Source: Escherichia coli
Lineage (GTDB): Bacteria > Pseudomonadota > Gammaproteobacteria > Enterobacterales > Enterobacteriaceae
Assembly (NCBI RefSeq): GCF_048403405.1
Contig: NZ_CP183129.1
DNA length: 64,000 nucleotides
Strand: one strand, 5' to 3'
Shown: positions 1 to 37,822 of the stretch, piece by piece
Layout: every line of letters begins with the position of its first letter
Numbering within the stretch: position 1 is the stretch's first letter
Notes under the pieces: model-generated
Told to the model about the DNA's origin: nothing
The model's input: only the letters and a program-made list of their open reading frames with translations
Databases searched by the model: none
Position numbers and translations under genes: made by a program

Positions 1-80
1 CGTCGGCTAGCCTGACGCTGCATGCGCCAGCGCCCCACTTCCGTTCTACTCCGCTTCATGTTAACTACTCTATGCAATAA
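1..80 (+). CDS. 3' end of an ORF running off the window start (possibly kch by synteny with cls)
   Basis: Frame 3 is open from position 3 to a TAA at 78-80; only 26 codons visible, so identity cannot be verified. Confidence 0.25.
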   Translation, partial: SASLTLHAPAPHFRSTPLHVNYSMQ

Positions 81-201
81 CAGAATGGTCATTATACCCC
101 CGCCCCCGACGCTGACCAGTGCTTTTCCCGCGTTTTTATTTGCCAGATGAATCCATATGCGTAAACTCATAACAATGCGCTTTCAAAAGGATTTCTAATC
201 T

Positions 202-2026
<1,825 letters not shown>

Positions 2027-2043
2027 ATAATCGCTTTCGGCGT

Positions 2044-2761
2044 AATAAATATCCTCCGGCATAGCCGGAGGTTTTTCAAATGCGCCTATAAGGCTCTCTT
2101 ACCAGCCGCGCCCTAACAGGCGCACACGATCTGACATTTGCATCCAACTTCGTTACTTACGGCCCGTAAACGGGCTGCCCGGATAGGGAATCGATAACTG
2201 CTCTCCCATTTTATCCTCTTCAAGCTGGTGCTTTATGTAATCCTGTATCTTCGCCGTGTTCTTACCCACCGTATCGACGTAGTACCCTCTGCACCAGAAC
2301 TCCCTGTTCCTGTATTTGAATTTCAAATCACCAAACTGCTCGTAAAGCATCAGACTGCTTTTCCCTTTCAGATATCCCATAAAGCCGGATACGCTCATTT
2401 TGGGCGGGATCTCCACAAGCATATGGATATGATCTGCACAGCATTCAGCTTCCAGAATCCGTACACTTTTCCACTCACACAGCTTTCTCAAAATACTGCC
2501 TATTGCTCTACGCTTCTCTCTGTAGAACACCTGTCTTCGGTATTTTGGCGCAAAAACTATGTGATATTTACAGTTCCATCGGGTGTGCGCTAAGCTCTTT
2601 TCGTTCCCCATTGGGACCCCCTTTTGATTTCTTGTTTGACACTTGCAGTTGCCAGACCGCAAGGTGTTTTAACAAATCAAAAGGGGTTTTAATAACTGGC
2701 TTAAAGCTGAAAGCTTTCCGGAACCCCCAGCCTAGCTGGGGGTTTTCTGTGCACAAAAAAG
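2044..2761 (-). mobile_element. IS200-family insertion sequence, copy 1 (about 718 bp, no terminal inverted repeats)
   Basis: Segment is identical to 37105..37822; encodes a Y1 HuH transposase; imperfect palindromes near both ends (cctccggcatagccggagg and cccccagcctagctggggg). Confidence 0.9.
2153..2611 (-). CDS. tnpA: IS200/IS605-family Y1 (HuH) transposase TnpA
   Basis: Translation MGNEKSLAHTRWNCKYHIVFAPKYRRQVF...; HuH motif (HIHML) and C-terminal tyrosine; start taken at the internal Met of the 169 aa ORF-track entry to give about 152 aa. Confidence 0.9.
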   Translation of the reverse strand: MGNEKSLAHTRWNCKYHIVFAPKYRRQVFYREKRRAIGSILRKLCEWKSVRILEAECCADHIHMLVEIPPKMSVSGFMGYLKGKSSLMLYEQFGDLKFKYRNREFWCRGYYVDTVGKNTAKIQDYIKHQLEEDKMGEQLSIPYPGSPFTGRK

Positions 2762-2786
2762 GGCTGACAACTGTCAGCCCTTATTT
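2761..2786 (-). terminator. oppF intrinsic terminator (hairpin gggctgacagttgtcagccc then T-run on minus strand)
   Basis: 9 bp perfect stem seen in sequence directly after the oppF stop; the T-run lies at the IS200 boundary. Confidence 0.6.
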
Positions 2787-2789
2787 TGT

Positions 2790-3794
2790 TTAAAGCGGAT
2801 CGACTTTCAGGCAAGAAACGGCGTGTCTGAAACTCCCCTCCAGCACAGGACGTGTTTTGGCACACTCCGGACCGGCAATCGGACAACGGGTACGGAAAAC
2901 ACAACCGGAAGGCGGGTTGATCGGCGACGGTAATTCCCCTTCCAGTAACTGGATGGTTTTGTTCTTCTCCAGATCCGGATCAGGTATGGGAACTGCCGAC
3001 ATCAATGCCCGGGTGTAAGGATGTAGTGGATTGTGGTAGACCTCATCATAGGTCCCCAGTTCTACCGCATGGCCGAGATACATCACCAGCACACGATCGG
3101 AAATGTGTTTTACCACGGCCAGGTCGTGAGCGATAAAAATTAATGACAATCCCATCTCGCGTTGCAGCTGCTGGAGCAAGTTGACCACCTGCGCCTGAAT
3201 TGACACGTCCAGCGCCGACACCGGCTCATCACAGATAATCAGCTTCGGTTCAAGAATAAGAGCACGAGCAATCCCGATACGCTGGCACTGCCCACCAGAG
3301 AACTCATGCGGATAGCGGTTAATCAGGTTAGGCAATAACCCGACTTTCAGCATCATCGCCTTCACGCGCTCGCGAACTTCCTGGCGTGACATTTTCGGAT
3401 GATAAGTACGCAGTGGTTCAGCGATGATCTCGCCGATGGTCATACGCGGGTTAAGCGATGCCAACGGATCCTGGAAAATCATCTGAATATCACTGCGAAC
3501 GGCACGCCATTCATCGGGCTTCATGCCCAGCAACTCTTTACCTAACCAGGCAACATGACCGTCGGTCGCCTTGACCAAACCGATGATGGCGCGAGCAAAG
3601 GTGGACTTACCGCATCCCGATTCCCCTACCACACCTAATGTTTCCCCTTCATACAGACGAAGAGTGACACCATCGACGGCTTTGAGCGTTTTCGGCGGTT
3701 GCCAGAACCACTGTTTGCCATCTTTGATTTCAAAGTGCACTTTCAGATCGGCGATTTCAAGGAGGACTTTTCTTCCTTCAGTTACAGCATTCAT
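2790..3794 (-). CDS. oppF: oligopeptide ABC transporter ATP-binding protein
   Basis: 334 aa; Walker A GESGCGKST, ABC signature LSGGQ; synteny with oppDCBA. Confidence 0.95.
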   Translation of the reverse strand: MNAVTEGRKVLLEIADLKVHFEIKDGKQWFWQPPKTLKAVDGVTLRLYEGETLGVVGESGCGKSTFARAIIGLVKATDGHVAWLGKELLGMKPDEWRAVRSDIQMIFQDPLASLNPRMTIGEIIAEPLRTYHPKMSRQEVRERVKAMMLKVGLLPNLINRYPHEFSGGQCQRIGIARALILEPKLIICDEPVSALDVSIQAQVVNLLQQLQREMGLSLIFIAHDLAVVKHISDRVLVMYLGHAVELGTYDEVYHNPLHPYTRALMSAVPIPDPDLEKNKTIQLLEGELPSPINPPSGCVFRTRCPIAGPECAKTRPVLEGSFRHAVSCLKVDPL

Positions 3795-4804
3795 AACAGT
3801 TCCTCCACCGGTTTAAAGCAAGCACGCAGACGGCCAGGCGTAAACTCTTCCAGCGGCGGTGCGCTACTACAAATTTCCATCGCATGTGGACAACGTGGCT
3901 GGAACGGGCAACCTTTCGGTAATCGCAGCAAGTTTGGCGGATTACCCGGGATGGTCAACATTGTTTCACCTTCCGCATCAAGACGCGGCACCGCGTTGAG
4001 CAAACCGATAGAATAAGGATGAACGGGTTGATAAAAGACATCGCGCGCATTGCCATATTCCATCGTGCGCCCGGCGTACATTACCAGCACTTTGTCGCAG
4101 ATCCCTGCCACCACGCCAAGATCGTGGGTGATCATAATGATGGCGGTATTAAATTCCCGCTTCAGTTCATTTAATAGCGTCATGATCTGTGCCTGTACGG
4201 TGACGTCCAGCGCAGTAGTGGGTTCATCCGCAATCAGCAGCTTAGGTCGACATAGCAATGCCATCGCAATCATGACTCGCTGACGCATGCCGCCAGAAAA
4301 TTCGTGCGGGTACATTTTCATGCGTTTACGCGCTTCCGGCATTTTTACCGCATCGAGCATCCGCACCGACTCTTCAAACGCCTCAGCTTTGCTCATGTTC
4401 TTATGCAGCATCAGCACTTCCATCAACTGCTCACCGACACGCATATAGGGATTCAACGAAGTCATTGGGTCCTGAAAAATCATTGAGATTTGTTCAGCGC
4501 GCAGTTTATTGAGTTCACGCTCTGGCAAATTGAGGATTTCACGCCCATTGAAGGTTGCCGATCCGCCAATACGTCCGTTGGCAGCCAACAGGCCCATCAA
4601 CGCAAATGCAGTTTGCGATTTACCCGAACCAGACTCACCTACAATGCCCAGCGTTTCTCCGGCACGTAGGGAAAAATTCAAATCATTGACCGCCGTGACG
4701 TCGCCGTCCGGGGTACTAAAGGTGACACGCAAATCTTTCACGTTCAGCAGTGCGTCAGCCTGTTGTTGTGCGAGCGGCACAGTTGCAGTTTCAATTACGC
4801 TCAT
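3791..4804 (-). CDS. oppD: oligopeptide ABC transporter ATP-binding protein
   Basis: 337 aa; Walker A GESGSGKSQ, FSGGMRQR signature; 4 nt overlap with oppF. Confidence 0.95.
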   Translation of the reverse strand: MSVIETATVPLAQQQADALLNVKDLRVTFSTPDGDVTAVNDLNFSLRAGETLGIVGESGSGKSQTAFALMGLLAANGRIGGSATFNGREILNLPERELNKLRAEQISMIFQDPMTSLNPYMRVGEQLMEVLMLHKNMSKAEAFEESVRMLDAVKMPEARKRMKMYPHEFSGGMRQRVMIAMALLCRPKLLIADEPTTALDVTVQAQIMTLLNELKREFNTAIIMITHDLGVVAGICDKVLVMYAGRTMEYGNARDVFYQPVHPYSIGLLNAVPRLDAEGETMLTIPGNPPNLLRLPKGCPFQPRCPHAMEICSSAPPLEEFTPGRLRACFKPVEELL

Positions 4805-4815
4805 GGCTGCACTCC

Positions 4816-5724
4816 TTAACGATCTTTCGGGTCGAGGGCATCACGCAAGCCATCGCCGATAAAGTTGAAACAAAACAGCGTCACCACGAGGAATCCCGCT
4901 GGGAACAACAGTAACCATGGAGAGACTTCCATCGAGTTCGCGCCATCACTCAGCAATGCACCCCAGCTGCTTAACGGCTCTTGCGTACCCAACCCCAGGA
5001 AGCTAAGGAAAGATTCAAAGAGGATCATGCTGGGCACCAGAAGTGATGCGTAGACCACCACCACACCGAGTACATTCGGCACAATGTGGCGAATAACAAT
5101 GCCCGACGTCGATACACCGCCAACTTGTGCCGCCTCAATAAACTCCTTGCGCTTCAGACTCAGGGTTTGCCCACGCACAATACGAGCCATATCCAGCCAG
5201 GAAACCATGCCTATCGCCACGAAAATCAGCAGGATGTTTTGACCGAAAAAGGTCACCAGCAAAATGACGAAGAACATGAATGGGAAGGAGTTGAGGATTT
5301 CCAGCAGACGCATCATTACCGAATCCACTTTACCGCCCAGATAACCGGAAAGCGAACCATAAAGTGTCCCGACGACCACAGCCACCAGTGCCGCAGCAAC
5401 ACCGACCATGAGTGAGATACGCCCGCCAATCGCAACGCGTACAAGCAGGTCGCGACCGGATGAGTCAGTACCAAAGTAGTGACCGGACTCCATATCCGGG
5501 GCGCTGGACATCATCGCCCAGTCAGTATCGTCATAGGCAAACTGCGAAAGCATCGGTGCCAGGATTACAAATAACGCGATCAGCACCAGCACTATCAGAC
5601 TGGCAACCGCCGCACGGTTATGCATAAAACGTCGACGTGCGTCCTGCCACAAGCTGCGCCCTTCGACCTCCAGCTTTTCACTGAAATTTTCCAGCGTCTC
5701 GCTGTTTTTCTTACTTAACATCAT
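4816..5724 (-). CDS. oppC: oligopeptide ABC transporter permease
   Basis: 302 aa multi-TM protein of the BPD permease type, synteny. Confidence 0.93.
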   Translation of the reverse strand: MMLSKKNSETLENFSEKLEVEGRSLWQDARRRFMHNRAAVASLIVLVLIALFVILAPMLSQFAYDDTDWAMMSSAPDMESGHYFGTDSSGRDLLVRVAIGGRISLMVGVAAALVAVVVGTLYGSLSGYLGGKVDSVMMRLLEILNSFPFMFFVILLVTFFGQNILLIFVAIGMVSWLDMARIVRGQTLSLKRKEFIEAAQVGGVSTSGIVIRHIVPNVLGVVVVYASLLVPSMILFESFLSFLGLGTQEPLSSWGALLSDGANSMEVSPWLLLFPAGFLVVTLFCFNFIGDGLRDALDPKDR

Positions 5725-5738
5725 CGCGAGCTCCAGTA

Positions 5739-6659
5739 TCAGTAACGGATTTTCGGGTCGATAACCGCATATAGCACATCGACAATGGCATTAAACAAAA
5801 TGGTTAACGCACCAACCAGAATGGTCAGACTTAACACTAAGGAATAGTCACGGTTCAATGCGCCATTAACGAACAATTGCCCAATCCCCGGTAAACCATA
5901 AATGGTTTCGATGACCATAGAACCGGTAATAATGCCGACAAATGCAGGGCCCATATAGGAGAGCACGGGTAACAGAGCTGGTTTTAATGCGTGGCGTAAA
6001 ATGATCCGCCGCATAGGTAACCCTTTCGCCCGGGCAGTACGAATAAAGTTGGAGTGTAAAACCTCAATCATAGAGCCACGGGTAATACGCGCAATACTGG
6101 CGATATAGGCGAGTGACAACGCCACCATCGGCAATATCATGAATTTAAGCGCCCCACCATTCCAGCCACCGCCCGGCAGCCAATGCAAAATGATCGCAAA
6201 TATCATGACTAATAATGGCGCAACCACAAAACTGGGGATAACAACCCCGGTCATTGCCAGCCCCATCACGGTATAGTCCCATTTGGTGTTTTGTTTTAAT
6301 GCGGCAATAACGCCAGCACTAACACCCAGTATTACCGCAAGGAAAAATGCTGCGGCTCCCAGTTTGGCAGAAACGGGAAAACTGGATGCAACCAGGTCGT
6401 TGACCGAATAATCTTTATATTTAAACGATGGACCGAAATCGCCATGCGCCAGTTGTTTCAGGTAGCTGAAATACTGTGTCATGATCGGATCATTTAGATG
6501 ATATTTCGCTTCGATATTGGCCATCACTTCTGGCGGTAAAGTACGTTCGCCGGTAAAAGGGCTTCCCGGCGCGAGGCGCATCATGAAGAACGAAATAGTA
6601 ATAAGAATAAATAGCGTCGGAATCGCTTCCAGACAGCGACGTAGAATAAATTTTAACAT
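5739..6659 (-). CDS. oppB: oligopeptide ABC transporter permease
   Basis: 306 aa multi-TM protein, synteny. Confidence 0.93.
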   Translation of the reverse strand: MLKFILRRCLEAIPTLFILITISFFMMRLAPGSPFTGERTLPPEVMANIEAKYHLNDPIMTQYFSYLKQLAHGDFGPSFKYKDYSVNDLVASSFPVSAKLGAAAFFLAVILGVSAGVIAALKQNTKWDYTVMGLAMTGVVIPSFVVAPLLVMIFAIILHWLPGGGWNGGALKFMILPMVALSLAYIASIARITRGSMIEVLHSNFIRTARAKGLPMRRIILRHALKPALLPVLSYMGPAFVGIITGSMVIETIYGLPGIGQLFVNGALNRDYSLVLSLTILVGALTILFNAIVDVLYAVIDPKIRY

Positions 6660-6744
6660 TGCCCTACCTTCTGGCCTGTGCCTTCTGTAATGCGATAAAA
6701 ATCAGACACCGTGGAGCAGGACACGCCTGCCCCACGTATTGCCA

Positions 6745-8376
6745 TTAGTGCTTCACAATGTACATATTCCGGGTGTAGGTATTATCCAGCGGATCTTTGC
6801 CGGTATAGCCACCAACCCACGGTTTCACCAGACGCGCATTCACGTAGTAATAAACAGGAACAATGGCCGAATCCTTATCCAGCTGTTGTTCTGCTTTAGT
6901 GTACAGAGCTGTGCGCTGCGCCTCGTCAGTCGCTTTCAGCGTTTCCGCCATAATGCTGTCAAAGGCCGGGCTCTTATAATGCGCGGTATTCATCGAGCTG
7001 TTCGACAGCATGGTGTTCAGGAAGGAAGTTGGTTCGTTGTAGTCTGCACACCAGCCTGCACGGGCCACATCAAAAGTGCCCTGGTGACGGGTGTCGAGGA
7101 ATGTTTTCCACTCCTGGTTAACCAGTTTGACGTTTACACCAATGTTTTTCTTCCACAATGAAGAGGCAGCAATCGCCAGCTTTTTATGCAGATCGGAGGT
7201 GTTATACAACAGGTTGATGGTTAACGGTTTGTCTGCGGTATAACCCGCTTCAGCCAGCAGTTTTTTCGCTTCTTCGTTACGTTTTTCCTGGCTCCAGCCA
7301 AACCATTCCGGCTGAGTCAATTTTGCGCCATCAGTATACGGTGGAGTGTAACTATAGGCGGGCATGTCGCCCTGCGCTTTCACTTTATTAACAATGATAT
7401 CGCGGTCCATACCCAGTTTCAGTGCGGTACGCACACGTACATCGTTAAATGGCGGTTTCTGGTTGTTAATTTCGTAATAATAAGTGCACAGGTATGGATC
7501 AACGTGAACTTCGTCCGGGATCTCTTTTTTCAGCTTCTGGAACAATTCGATCGGCATGTTGTTATAAGTCATGTCGATTTCACCACTACGGTAGCGATTG
7601 ACATCGGTAACTTCAGAAGCAATAGGCAAATAGGTTACCTGGTTAATAACGGTTTTCGCGTTGTTCCAGTAGGTCGGGCTGCGTTCAAGAACGATTCGTT
7701 CGTTTACGACCCAATCTTTTAAGGTATAGGCACCGTTGGTGACGATATTACCAGGCTGGGTCCATTTTTCGCCGAATTTCTCGATAGCGGCTTTTGGCAC
7801 CGGTGAAGTTGACGGGTGAACAAGTAATTTATAGAAGTACGGAACGGGTTCACTTAAGGTGACTTCTAATGTGTGATCATCAATAGCTTTCACGCCGAGA
7901 TCGGTAATCGGTTTTTTCCCTTCAAGAATTTCATCAATACCGGCGATATGCCCATATTGCAGATAACTGGCATACGGAGAAGCGGTGTTCGGATCAACAG
8001 AACGTTGCCAGCTATACACAAAGTCTTGGGCTGTGACTGGCGTGCCATCAGACCATTTCGCATCTTTACGCAAATGGAAGGTCCAGACTTTCGCGTCTTT
8101 ATTATCCCAGGATTCAGCGACGCCAGGTGCCGGATGGCCGTCAAGATCGCTGACCAGTAAGCCTTCAAACAGGTCTCGGCTGATATTAGACTCCGGAACA
8201 CCTTCAATTTTGTGCGGATCTAATGACTGAACTTCTGAACCATTGTTACGTACCAGCGTTTGTTTTTCCGCCAGTGTGACGCCTGCGGGTACATCAGCTG
8301 CCAGCGCGACATTCCCTGCCATAAGCGCAGCCAGAACGCCAGCTGCTACTAAACTTCTCTTGGTGATGTTGGTCAT
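6745..8376 (-). CDS. oppA: periplasmic oligopeptide-binding protein
   Basis: Start taken at MTNITKRSLVAAGVLAALMAGNVALA (signal peptide) inside the 567 aa ORF-track entry, giving 543 aa; family 5 solute-binding protein. Confidence 0.93.
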   Translation of the reverse strand: MTNITKRSLVAAGVLAALMAGNVALAADVPAGVTLAEKQTLVRNNGSEVQSLDPHKIEGVPESNISRDLFEGLLVSDLDGHPAPGVAESWDNKDAKVWTFHLRKDAKWSDGTPVTAQDFVYSWQRSVDPNTASPYASYLQYGHIAGIDEILEGKKPITDLGVKAIDDHTLEVTLSEPVPYFYKLLVHPSTSPVPKAAIEKFGEKWTQPGNIVTNGAYTLKDWVVNERIVLERSPTYWNNAKTVINQVTYLPIASEVTDVNRYRSGEIDMTYNNMPIELFQKLKKEIPDEVHVDPYLCTYYYEINNQKPPFNDVRVRTALKLGMDRDIIVNKVKAQGDMPAYSYTPPYTDGAKLTQPEWFGWSQEKRNEEAKKLLAEAGYTADKPLTINLLYNTSDLHKKLAIAASSLWKKNIGVNVKLVNQEWKTFLDTRHQGTFDVARAGWCADYNEPTSFLNTMLSNSSMNTAHYKSPAFDSIMAETLKATDEAQRTALYTKAEQQLDKDSAIVPVYYYVNARLVKPWVGGYTGKDPLDNTYTRNMYIVKH

Positions 8377-35960: not shown

Positions 35961-36249
35961 CAGTTATATCTCCTCCGATGACAGAAATCGGGGGAGATAA
36001 TATAAATTCCTGCTTATTGTATTTCTTCATACTACCTGAACAGGTTGTTAATCAGAATTGCGAGCCTGTACCAGAACCTGCACGAAACCACTGCAACAGC
36101 TGTTGAAAAGCCGGAATGTACTCTTTATTGCAAACATTTCAGGGATGAAGTGAAGATGAATTGAGACGTAGTATCCACACCAAGCCGGCGTTATCCGGTG
36201 AGGCGCAATGTTGCGGGGGCTTTATCCCTGGTGGCATTGGTTGCTGGAA

Positions 36250-36317
36250 AGAGAAAACCCCCGCACGTTGAGAGGTAAAACCTGACAACAGAACGGGGGC
36301 TAATCTTGAACCATCAA
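36250..36317 (-). ncRNA. rdl: predicted Rdl antisense RNA, copy A (coordinates approximate)
   Basis: Minus-strand promoter ttgtaa-N17-tattct (-10 at 36325..36330), stem cccccg/cggggg plus T-rich tract about 67 nt downstream; antisense to the ldr leader. Confidence 0.4.
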
Positions 36318-36365
36318 CAATTCAAGAATAGCCGCAAAATGTTGTCATTACAACAAGGCGGCTAT

Positions 36366-36473
36366 ATGACGCTCGCGCAGTTTGCCATGATTTTCTGGCA
36401 CGACCTGGCAGCACCGATCCTGGCGGGAATTATTACCGCAGCGATTGTCAGCTGGTGGCGTAACCGGAAGTAA
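36366..36473 (+). CDS. ldr: Ldr type I toxin (35 aa membrane peptide)
   Basis: MTLAQFAMIFWHDLAAPILAGIITAAIVSWWRNRK; followed by hairpin ggccgcaggtgtaacagcctgcggcc plus TTTTTT (36523..36554). Confidence 0.9.
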   Translation: MTLAQFAMIFWHDLAAPILAGIITAAIVSWWRNRK

Positions 36474-36784
36474 GGTGAAAACGGGCGTCAGGCTGCCGTG
36501 ATGGCAATATGCGCCCGAAACCGGCCGCAGGTGTAACAGCCTGCGGCCTTTTTTGTCTTTATCTCTTCCACAAGTAAATATTGGCAACCCGAGCTGGAAG
36601 CATCATCCAGAGCACTCATGAAACGACTGTAACAGCTGTTGAAAAACCGGAATGCACTCTTCATTGCATACATTTCAGGGATGAAGTGAAGATGAATTGA
36701 GTCGTAGTATCCACACCAAGCCGGCGTTATCCGGTGAGGCGCAATGTTGCGGGGGCTCTATCCCTGGTGGCATTGGTTGCTGGA

Positions 36785-36852
36785 AAGAGAAAACCCCCGC
36801 ACGTTGAGAGGTATAACCTGACAACAGAACGGGGGCTAATCTTGAACCAGAA
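36785..36852 (-). ncRNA. rdl: predicted Rdl antisense RNA, copy B (coordinates approximate)
   Basis: Same promoter and terminator-like elements as copy A, shifted by 535 bp. Confidence 0.4.
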
Positions 36853-36900
36853 CAATTCAAGAATAGCCGCAAAATGTTGTCATTACAACAAGGCGGCTAT

Positions 36901-37008
36901 ATGACGCTCACGCAGTTTGCCATGACTTTCTGGCACGACCTGGCAGCACCGATCCTGGCGGGAATTATTACCGCAGCGATTGTCAGCTGGTGGCGTAACC
37001 GGAAGTAA
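36901..37008 (+). CDS. ldr: Ldr type I toxin (35 aa), second copy
   Basis: MTLTQFAMTFWHDLAAPILAGIITAAIVSWWRNRK (two substitutions relative to copy A); terminator hairpin 37058..37089. Confidence 0.9.
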   Translation: MTLTQFAMTFWHDLAAPILAGIITAAIVSWWRNRK

Positions 37009-37104
37009 GGTGAAAACGGGCGTCAGGCTGCCGTGATGGCAATATGCGCCCGAAACCGGCCGCAGGAGTAACAGCCTGCGGCCTTTTTTGTATCCGGCCC
37101 CATG

Positions 37105-37822
37105 AATAAATATCCTCCGGCATAGCCGGAGGTTTTTCAAATGCGCCTATAAGGCTCTCTTACCAGCCGCGCCCTAACAGGCGCACACGATCTGACATTT
37201 GCATCCAACTTCGTTACTTACGGCCCGTAAACGGGCTGCCCGGATAGGGAATCGATAACTGCTCTCCCATTTTATCCTCTTCAAGCTGGTGCTTTATGTA
37301 ATCCTGTATCTTCGCCGTGTTCTTACCCACCGTATCGACGTAGTACCCTCTGCACCAGAACTCCCTGTTCCTGTATTTGAATTTCAAATCACCAAACTGC
37401 TCGTAAAGCATCAGACTGCTTTTCCCTTTCAGATATCCCATAAAGCCGGATACGCTCATTTTGGGCGGGATCTCCACAAGCATATGGATATGATCTGCAC
37501 AGCATTCAGCTTCCAGAATCCGTACACTTTTCCACTCACACAGCTTTCTCAAAATACTGCCTATTGCTCTACGCTTCTCTCTGTAGAACACCTGTCTTCG
37601 GTATTTTGGCGCAAAAACTATGTGATATTTACAGTTCCATCGGGTGTGCGCTAAGCTCTTTTCGTTCCCCATTGGGACCCCCTTTTGATTTCTTGTTTGA
37701 CACTTGCAGTTGCCAGACCGCAAGGTGTTTTAACAAATCAAAAGGGGTTTTAATAACTGGCTTAAAGCTGAAAGCTTTCCGGAACCCCCAGCCTAGCTGG
37801 GGGTTTTCTGTGCACAAAAAAG
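37105..37822 (-). mobile_element. IS200-family insertion sequence, copy 2
   Basis: Identical to 2044..2761 over the full length; flanks differ (ldr terminator on one side, kdsA terminator on the other). Confidence 0.9.
37214..37672 (-). CDS. tnpA: IS200/IS605-family Y1 (HuH) transposase TnpA
   Basis: Same protein as 2153..2611. Confidence 0.9.
   Translation of the reverse strand: MGNEKSLAHTRWNCKYHIVFAPKYRRQVFYREKRRAIGSILRKLCEWKSVRILEAECCADHIHMLVEIPPKMSVSGFMGYLKGKSSLMLYEQFGDLKFKYRNREFWCRGYYVDTVGKNTAKIQDYIKHQLEEDKMGEQLSIPYPGSPFTGRK

Follow-up and report, generated by a model that had tools for sequence, protein, structure and literature searches.

A recently gained IS200C-type insertion directly after the oppF terminator of Escherichia coli, and the hairpin-plus-T-tract flank of IS200 left ends

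The 64,000-nucleotide stretch of Escherichia coli contig NZ_CP183129.1 analysed here (the window) carries a complete IS200C-type element of 711 bp on its minus strand at 2044-2754, between the convergent genes yciU and oppF. We are close to certain that this is an intact IS200C copy, belonging to the IS200 group of the IS200/IS605 family, and that it was probably active recently. Comparison of the sequences indicates that the insertion between yciU and oppF is a very recent gain inside a clone already bearing the element. Here, we describe the identity, borders and empty site of this element, its rarity and recency, its hairpins, the pattern of its target and its strand orientation. Throughout, the top strand is the tnpA-sense strand, i.e. 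the minus strand of the window; LE and RE denote the left and right ends. The element, its surroundings and its second copy in the window are as follows.

1697..2026, plus strand: yciU, the left neighbour (stop codon 2024-2026, 17 nt before RE; as annotated by PGAP in strain 4621, where the region is identical)
2044..2754, minus strand: complete IS200C-type insertion sequence (LE at 2754, RE at 2044; border ambiguity 2 nt)
2755..2760, minus strand: T-tract used as target (top strand TTTTTT), immediately 5' of LE; chromosomal and unduplicated
2759..2782, no strand assigned: intrinsic terminator hairpin of oppF, flagged on both strands by the terminator scan
2790..3794, minus strand: oppF, the right neighbour, co-oriented with tnpA, with its terminator directly before LE
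37105-37815, minus strand: second copy, with 100% identity and like orientation, immediately behind the hairpin and T6 of the kdsA terminator

The insert borders were first read from an alignment with K-12 MG1655. An empty-site probe of 300 nt, in which 1894-2043 was joined to 2755-2904, was searched against 5426 complete E. coli genomes. Strains TUM14771 and GN02461 match this rebuilt junction, from which 2044-2754 has been removed, at 300/300 nt, and 5410 of the 5426 genomes cover it contiguously. The empty-site comparison reveals no target duplication at the borders of 2044-2754 and leaves an ambiguity of 2 nt, as AA opens the element and an A-run comes after it. The original prediction had placed an element of 718 bp at 2044-2761. 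An element does begin at 2044, but the predicted right border lies 7 nt too far and was rejected: AAAAAAG (2755-2761) is kept in the empty sites and is thus chromosomal, forming part of the T-tract of the oppF terminator. These seven nucleotides looked element-borne because other copies have the same kind of flank. The remaining statements on location agree with our results, namely that the element lies between the convergent yciU (plus strand) and oppF (minus strand), begins 17 bp past the yciU stop and adjoins the oppF terminator, LE sitting directly on the T-tract.

The 718-bp interval is 100% identical to stretches of many complete E. coli genomes, by which a chance resemblance is excluded, and identical copies carry the PGAP label 'IS200/IS605-like element IS200C family transposase'. 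The isoform name used here follows the PGAP annotation of the identical protein WP_000526135.1, an IS200C family transposase placed at the same position in strain 4621. The IS200 isoforms of ISfinder are IS200A-G, from Salmonella enterica and E. coli. The tnpA gene is the sole long sense ORF of the 711-bp element, which lacks tnpB; two plus-strand ORFs inside it (121 and 96 aa) were discarded as antisense artefacts. Our results support the earlier interpretation as an IS200-family insertion, and the copy is an ordinary, intact one; Pfam, NCBIfam, the relatives in the PDB and the PGAP name of identical copies all agree on this assignment, and we found nothing at odds with it.

The encoded protein had been predicted to be a Y1 HuH transposase of about 152 aa with an HIHML motif and a C-terminal tyrosine, and it is one. 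It matches the Pfam family Y1_Tnp with E=4.4e-38 over model positions 2-121 of 121, and the NCBIfam model NF033573 ('IS200/IS605 family transposase') with 147.7 bits, where the curated cutoff is 55. In the protein, the HUH motif (H61-I-H63) falls within CADHIHMLVEI and the catalytic tyrosine, Y125, within IQDYIKHQ, which belongs to the conserved xxYIxxQ helix. The PDB alignment had offered Y110 (RGYYVD) as the catalytic tyrosine; this candidate is ruled out by the Y125F mutant, the catalytically dead control for IS200 TnpA (PMC4513863). PDB relatives include 2ec2, 2f4f and 2a6m (IS608 TnpA), with E=4e-23 to 4e-19, and the solved TnpA structures of Sulfolobus, IS608 and ISDra2 are matched with E=4e-23 to 1e-14.

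No inverted repeat joins the two termini (2044-2060 compared with 2740-2754), and subterminal hairpins are present at both ends (2053-2071 and 2722-2744). Inverted-repeat and fold scans thus bear out what had been anticipated for the ends. From LE to RE, the parts of the element are as follows.

2754-2745, minus strand: LE nt 1-10 of the top strand, GTGCACAGAA
2722..2744, minus strand: LE subterminal hairpin AACCCCCAGC-TAG-GCTGGGGGTT, top-strand nt 11-33, with a 10-bp perfect stem
2621..2744, minus strand: match, on the tnpA-sense strand, to Rfam RF01405 (STnc490), taking in both the LE hairpin and the 5'UTR stem-loop
2618..2686, minus strand: tnpA 5'UTR stem-loop, top-strand nt 69-137, which hides the Shine-Dalgarno sequence AAGGGGG
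2601..2691, plus strand: art200 antisense RNA region, placed by homology only
2153..2611, minus strand: tnpA, encoding the 152-aa Y1 HUH transposase
2611, minus strand: ATG of tnpA, top-strand nt 144
2155-2153, minus strand: stop of tnpA, top-strand nt 600-602
2044..2076, minus strand: RE, hairpin and tail, ending the element
2071-2053, minus strand: RE hairpin CCTCCGGC-TAT-GCCGGAGG, top-strand nt 684-702
2052-2044, minus strand: RE tail ATATTTATT, 9 nt, top-strand nt 703-711

The known control devices of IS200 are all present: the LE terminator hairpin, the 5'UTR stem-loop and the art200-encoding region. The LE hairpin, whose single-stranded DNA fold has z=-8.1, agrees in position with the IS200 hairpin at nt 12-34, which acts as the element's own bidirectional terminator (PMC4513863); by analogy with IS608, it is likely to be the hairpin bound by TnpA. 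The 5'UTR stem-loop, published for IS200 at nt 69-138 (PMC4513863), is built here on a 16-nt inverted repeat of 94% complementarity and folds as RNA at -40 kcal/mol (z=-3.6) with the Shine-Dalgarno sequence paired. The 5' ends of art200 map to IS200 nt 153/154 and its length is 90 nt (PMC4513863), and by homology the RNA would be expressed from 2601..2691. The RF01405 match scores 146.1 bits (gathering score 56; E=2e-31) over the full model, 1-124. It lies on the tnpA-sense strand, whereas STnc490/art200 is described as antisense to tnpA, and the two strands appear not to coincide. The RE hairpin folds with z of about -4.2. RE also bears a weak Rfam similarity to the 3' hairpin of Ysr202; the matches to Ysr202, mir-2755 and STnc320 were set aside, as they fall far under their gathering scores and reflect generic terminator hairpins.

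Occupied sites were searched with 300-bp flanks in the same 5426 complete genomes, and the yciU-oppF site is occupied in seven. Four of these (4621, MS 69-1, TUM1226 and OX030728) are 100% identical, and the other three are ST2747 genomes, at 97.9%. The site is uninterrupted in MG1655, as expected from the original prediction that the element is absent from K-12, and in K-12-derived records (e.g. C600) the flanks are the single match place, with no IS200 copy at megablast sensitivity. The further claim that the element marks a non-K-12 lineage has to be recast. The presence of IS200 says little, IS200-like sequence being found in 3097 of the 5426 genomes and in up to 35 places per genome, but this particular insertion, with only seven carriers, marks a very narrow clone. 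Strain TUM14771, compared with window positions 1-40000, differs by 2 SNPs in 37.2 kb; it has the copy next to kdsA and an empty yciU-oppF site. A clone-mate this close with an empty site means that the insertion is very recent. Genomes of the occupied clone have 13-20 element match places each.

The kdsA site is occupied in 254 of the 5426 genomes. In the window, the copy at 37105-37815 is flanked by kdsA and an Ldr-type toxin gene, and two repeats of ~487 bp (36071-36556 and 36607-37091), each with an Ldr-type toxin gene, adjoin it. The two repeats cross-match at ~96% in BLAST against relatives, and we take them to be the LDR repeats known from K-12.

In ST2747 (NZ_CP007394.1), the yciU-oppF interval is occupied at the identical nucleotide by a different IS200 variant, which has the same orientation. 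The flanks are identical to the window over 600/600 nt, and all 27 differences lie inside the 711-bp element (3.8% divergent). Copies 100% identical to this variant occur elsewhere in ST2747 and in other genomes, e.g. near yddM in other strains, and ST2747 has no copy next to kdsA. The two genomes are ~0.5% diverged over 30 kb. Within window 1-8000, only 2 SNPs are found outside the IS, against ~10 per 2 kb further on, which suggests that 1-8000 may be a recombination tract shared with ST2747. ST2747 also lacks ~1.6 kb of the opp operon (window 5398-7002), with oppB and oppC missing, and its record annotates an elongated oppA adjoining oppD.

Two independent insertions into one preferred target are the more economical account of this coincidence. 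We regard as unlikely the alternative of a single insertion whose IS was later overwritten by gene conversion in each genome. The possible shared tract around the locus would suit it, as would the many copies of its own variant that each genome holds as possible conversion donors; nevertheless, the same flank allele is empty in the clone-mates of the window, and the kdsA copy, common to the wider clade of the window, is missing from ST2747. Gene conversion also needs an insertion, a near-full-length conversion and excisions, where the alternative needs two insertions. Far less credible is an ancestral element between yciU and oppF that K-12 and the majority of other E. coli have lost. Excision of IS200/IS605 elements is seamless (PMC5027513) and leaves scarless empty sites, so that an empty close relative could in principle reflect loss, and ST2747 is occupied at the same nucleotide despite its divergence. 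However, the site is uninterrupted in nearly all of the genomes searched, among the 254 genomes that carry the kdsA copy just 4 have an element here as well, TUM14771 and GN02461 are both empty, the former 2 SNPs in 37 kb away, and the ST2747 copy is the other variant. A dead relic or non-autonomous derivative is just as improbable. IS200 has been described as mostly dormant and its transposition as notoriously rare in the laboratory (PMC4513863), but this copy retains an untruncated ORF with its HUH motif and Y125, along with both ends and every regulatory structure; it matches the second copy, and further copies in many genomes, at 100% identity, and within one clone the site is polymorphic. 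Our preferred reading, an intact element that inserted recently, draws for its activity on population evidence only, that is, on identical copies and a polymorphic site.

Harm to the neighbouring genes is probably slight. In window 1500-3300, cls lies on the plus strand together with yciU. The terminator hairpin of oppF and its T6 tract are the same in occupied and empty sites; this hairpin is bidirectional, and at the empty site it also faces yciU. In the occupied site, the RE hairpin, which on the plus strand is followed by TTTTTC, is terminator-like in the scan and faces yciU, and from its sequence, hairpin and T5 look like a replacement terminator for this gene. As oppF keeps its terminator and yciU meets the terminator-like RE hairpin, little effect is expected, and we infer that the insertion is probably close to neutral for both genes. 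With regard to replication, the plus-strand GC skew is negative in every 8-kb bin of the whole 64 kb. Replication direction was read from this skew only, and the negative sign makes the minus (tnpA-sense) strand the lagging-strand template sequence for both copies. A top strand on the lagging-strand template is the orientation reported for the IS200/IS605 family (PMC5027513).

The position of LE relative to a terminator recurs at other sites. At four E. coli sites (oppF, kdsA, bamC and pyrD, the last two in other strains), LE comes directly after a GC-rich hairpin and T-run, and the co-oriented gene upstream has this hairpin as its intrinsic terminator. BLAST matches reaching into the oppF hairpin had raised the idea of flank transduction, which was rejected, as bamC and pyrD have their own similar terminators. 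We surveyed LE by an exact scan for its 23-nt hairpin in one-genome-per-species contigs. The hairpin, AACCCCCAGCTAGGCTGGGGGTT, occurs exactly in at least 120 DNA stretches from many taxa, including Yersinia pestis, Vibrio, Brenneria, Dickeya, Edwardsiella, Oxalobacter, Mailhella/Desulfovibrio, and Bacillota and Peptococcaceae MAGs. It is also exact in Elusimicrobiaceae and Saccharibacteria MAGs, and element nt 1-10 vary. Its presence in distant taxa points to wide horizontal spread, or to contamination in some MAGs.

A flank was called terminator-like when it had a stem of at least 5 pairs, at least 3 of them G-C, with a loop of 3-8 nt, when the stem ended at most 9 nt before the junction and when at least 4 of the last 6 nt were T. 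This rule was applied to the 122 unique LE flanks of at least 50 nt among the matches listed, including those of Yersinia, Vibrio, Mailhella, Bacillota MAGs and other taxa, and 94 of these 122 (77%) were terminator-like. Of the control positions, 0.4% qualified when drawn at random, 9.3% when T-rich and 12.3% when at the end of a T-run outside long ORFs. The other 28 flanks among the matches listed have no perfect stem, and most show an imperfect one by eye. Over the 122 unique flanks among the matches listed, the consensus from -6 to -1 is TTT(T/A)TT, with T at -2 in 120 and at -1 in 109. On the element side, all variants compared among the matches listed keep GAAAA unchanged immediately 5' of the LE stem, and TTTTTT-GTGCAC-AGAAAA, which joins target and LE, is a palindrome. 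By analogy with the pairing of guide and cleavage site in IS608, we infer that GAAAA would be the guide that reads the T-rich target; both are invariant and leave no covariation signal.

Two further LE contexts deserve mention. In Yersinia pestis NCTC5923, tandem IS1541 copies have LE exactly after the RE hairpin and ATATTTATT of the other copy, and at these junctions RE behaves as an insertion target. In Dickeya undicola (~2110-2180 of the stretch concerned), a solo LE hairpin without an IS body stands after a terminator-like hairpin and T6 and lies within a longer palindrome, also perfect, GTCTATAGAA-[hairpin]-TTCTATAGAC; such a solo hairpin may represent what remains of an IS, or else a derivative consisting of the hairpin only.

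It is conceivable, and we put it forward tentatively at somewhat less than even chances, that TnpA of the IS200 clade recognises a structured single-stranded DNA target, a GC-rich hairpin with a T-tract, beyond a word of 4-6 nt. Such a reading would fit the shared shape of intrinsic terminators and of the element's own RE (hairpin and ATATTTATT), both being a hairpin plus T. If true, it would provide the element with an inherent safe haven behind genes and explain both the tandem copies and the repeated independent insertions at the same nucleotide. We give the same, not quite even, chance to an account in which a simple T-rich target combines with purifying selection and the hairpin is unread by TnpA; the terminator preference could then come partly from selection against insertions elsewhere instead of from recognition by TnpA. 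Harmless insertions after terminators survive, known family members use targets of 4-5 nt without a structural requirement (PMC5027513), and 28 of the 122 flanks among the matches listed fail the strict stem rule. A preprint in which terminator-like sequences are the most enriched upstream of IS200/IS605 elements likewise reads the association as a context limiting transposase expression (10.1101/2025.07.22.666184). Against this account, hairpins are found at only 12.3% of non-ORF T-run ends, compared with 77% of LE junctions among the matches listed; most of the 28 failing flanks, again among the matches listed, have an evident imperfect stem; the RE hairpin and its tail served as target in the tandem Y. 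pestis copies; and the same nucleotide was entered by two IS200 variants.

The course of events can be modelled on better-studied relatives. In IS608 and ISDra2, TnpA binds the single-stranded top strand at its subterminal hairpins and cuts it out precisely as a circle, a single-stranded intermediate established for both elements; the circle is then inserted into single-stranded DNA, for the most part the lagging-strand template, on the 3' side of a short specific target, in a 'peel and paste' manner (PMC5027513). By analogy, TnpA of IS200C would excise the top strand as a single-stranded DNA circle and paste it elsewhere. Here, the T6 tract ending the oppF intrinsic terminator was the target, LE being set against the T-tract without base duplication and with the terminator hairpin spared. 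Expression of tnpA would be kept very low by the LE terminator hairpin, the 5'UTR stem-loop over the ribosome-binding site, and art200.

The element itself is already known, a textbook IS labelled by standard pipelines, and the impact on annotation is small. The yciU-oppF insertion is of practical use as a clone marker, splitting genomes that are ~2 SNPs in 37 kb apart, and as a recent event it is evidence for continued movement of IS200C in natural E. coli. A modest lead is offered by the terminator-targeting pattern. Its occurrence in many phyla, the reuse of the same nucleotide and the use of RE as a target are moderately interesting with regard to the choice of harmless sites by single-strand transposons, and they also bear on TnpA-type enzymes as site-specific tools, although this has been partly anticipated in the literature. 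Our literature search for explicit targeting of intrinsic terminators by IS200 or IS1541 returned only the family-level preprint (10.1101/2025.07.22.666184) and an incidental case of an IS1541 copy lying between pheL and pheA. The terminator pattern is partly published, and only the reading by structural recognition and RE mimicry would be new.

Compared with known systems, the element resembles IS200 in its single 152-aa tnpA, in the placement, as published, of its LE terminator hairpin, its 5'UTR stem-loop and its art200/STnc490 region, and in lacking inverted repeats and target duplication. The one difference detected from IS200 of Salmonella LT2 is length, 711 bp here as against 707 bp (PMC4513863). 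It shares the 23-nt LE hairpin, the RE hairpin and tail, and the hairpin-plus-T-run LE flank with IS1541 of Yersinia pestis and Y. pseudotuberculosis, from which it differs in LE nt 1-10 (GTGCCCAGAA in IS1541, GTGCACAGAA here); IS1541 also has a much higher copy number and tandem copies. Like IS608 of Helicobacter pylori and ISDra2 of Deinococcus radiodurans, it has a Y1 HUH TnpA (2a6m, E=3.9e-19; 2xm3, E=1.9e-16), subterminal hairpins, insertion 3' of a short LE-abutting target, no duplication and the lagging-strand-template orientation. Unlike it, those elements have tnpB and use TTAC or TTGAT as targets with no known hairpin context, in place of the T-tract after a hairpin seen here. A more distant Y1 HUH relative is RAYT/TnpA-REP, to which a weak match was obtained (NCBIfam NF047646, 32 bits, under the cutoff of 80). 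RAYTs act on extragenic hairpins and are single-copy domesticated genes flanked by REPs, whereas the element between yciU and oppF is a mobile element of 0.7 kb.
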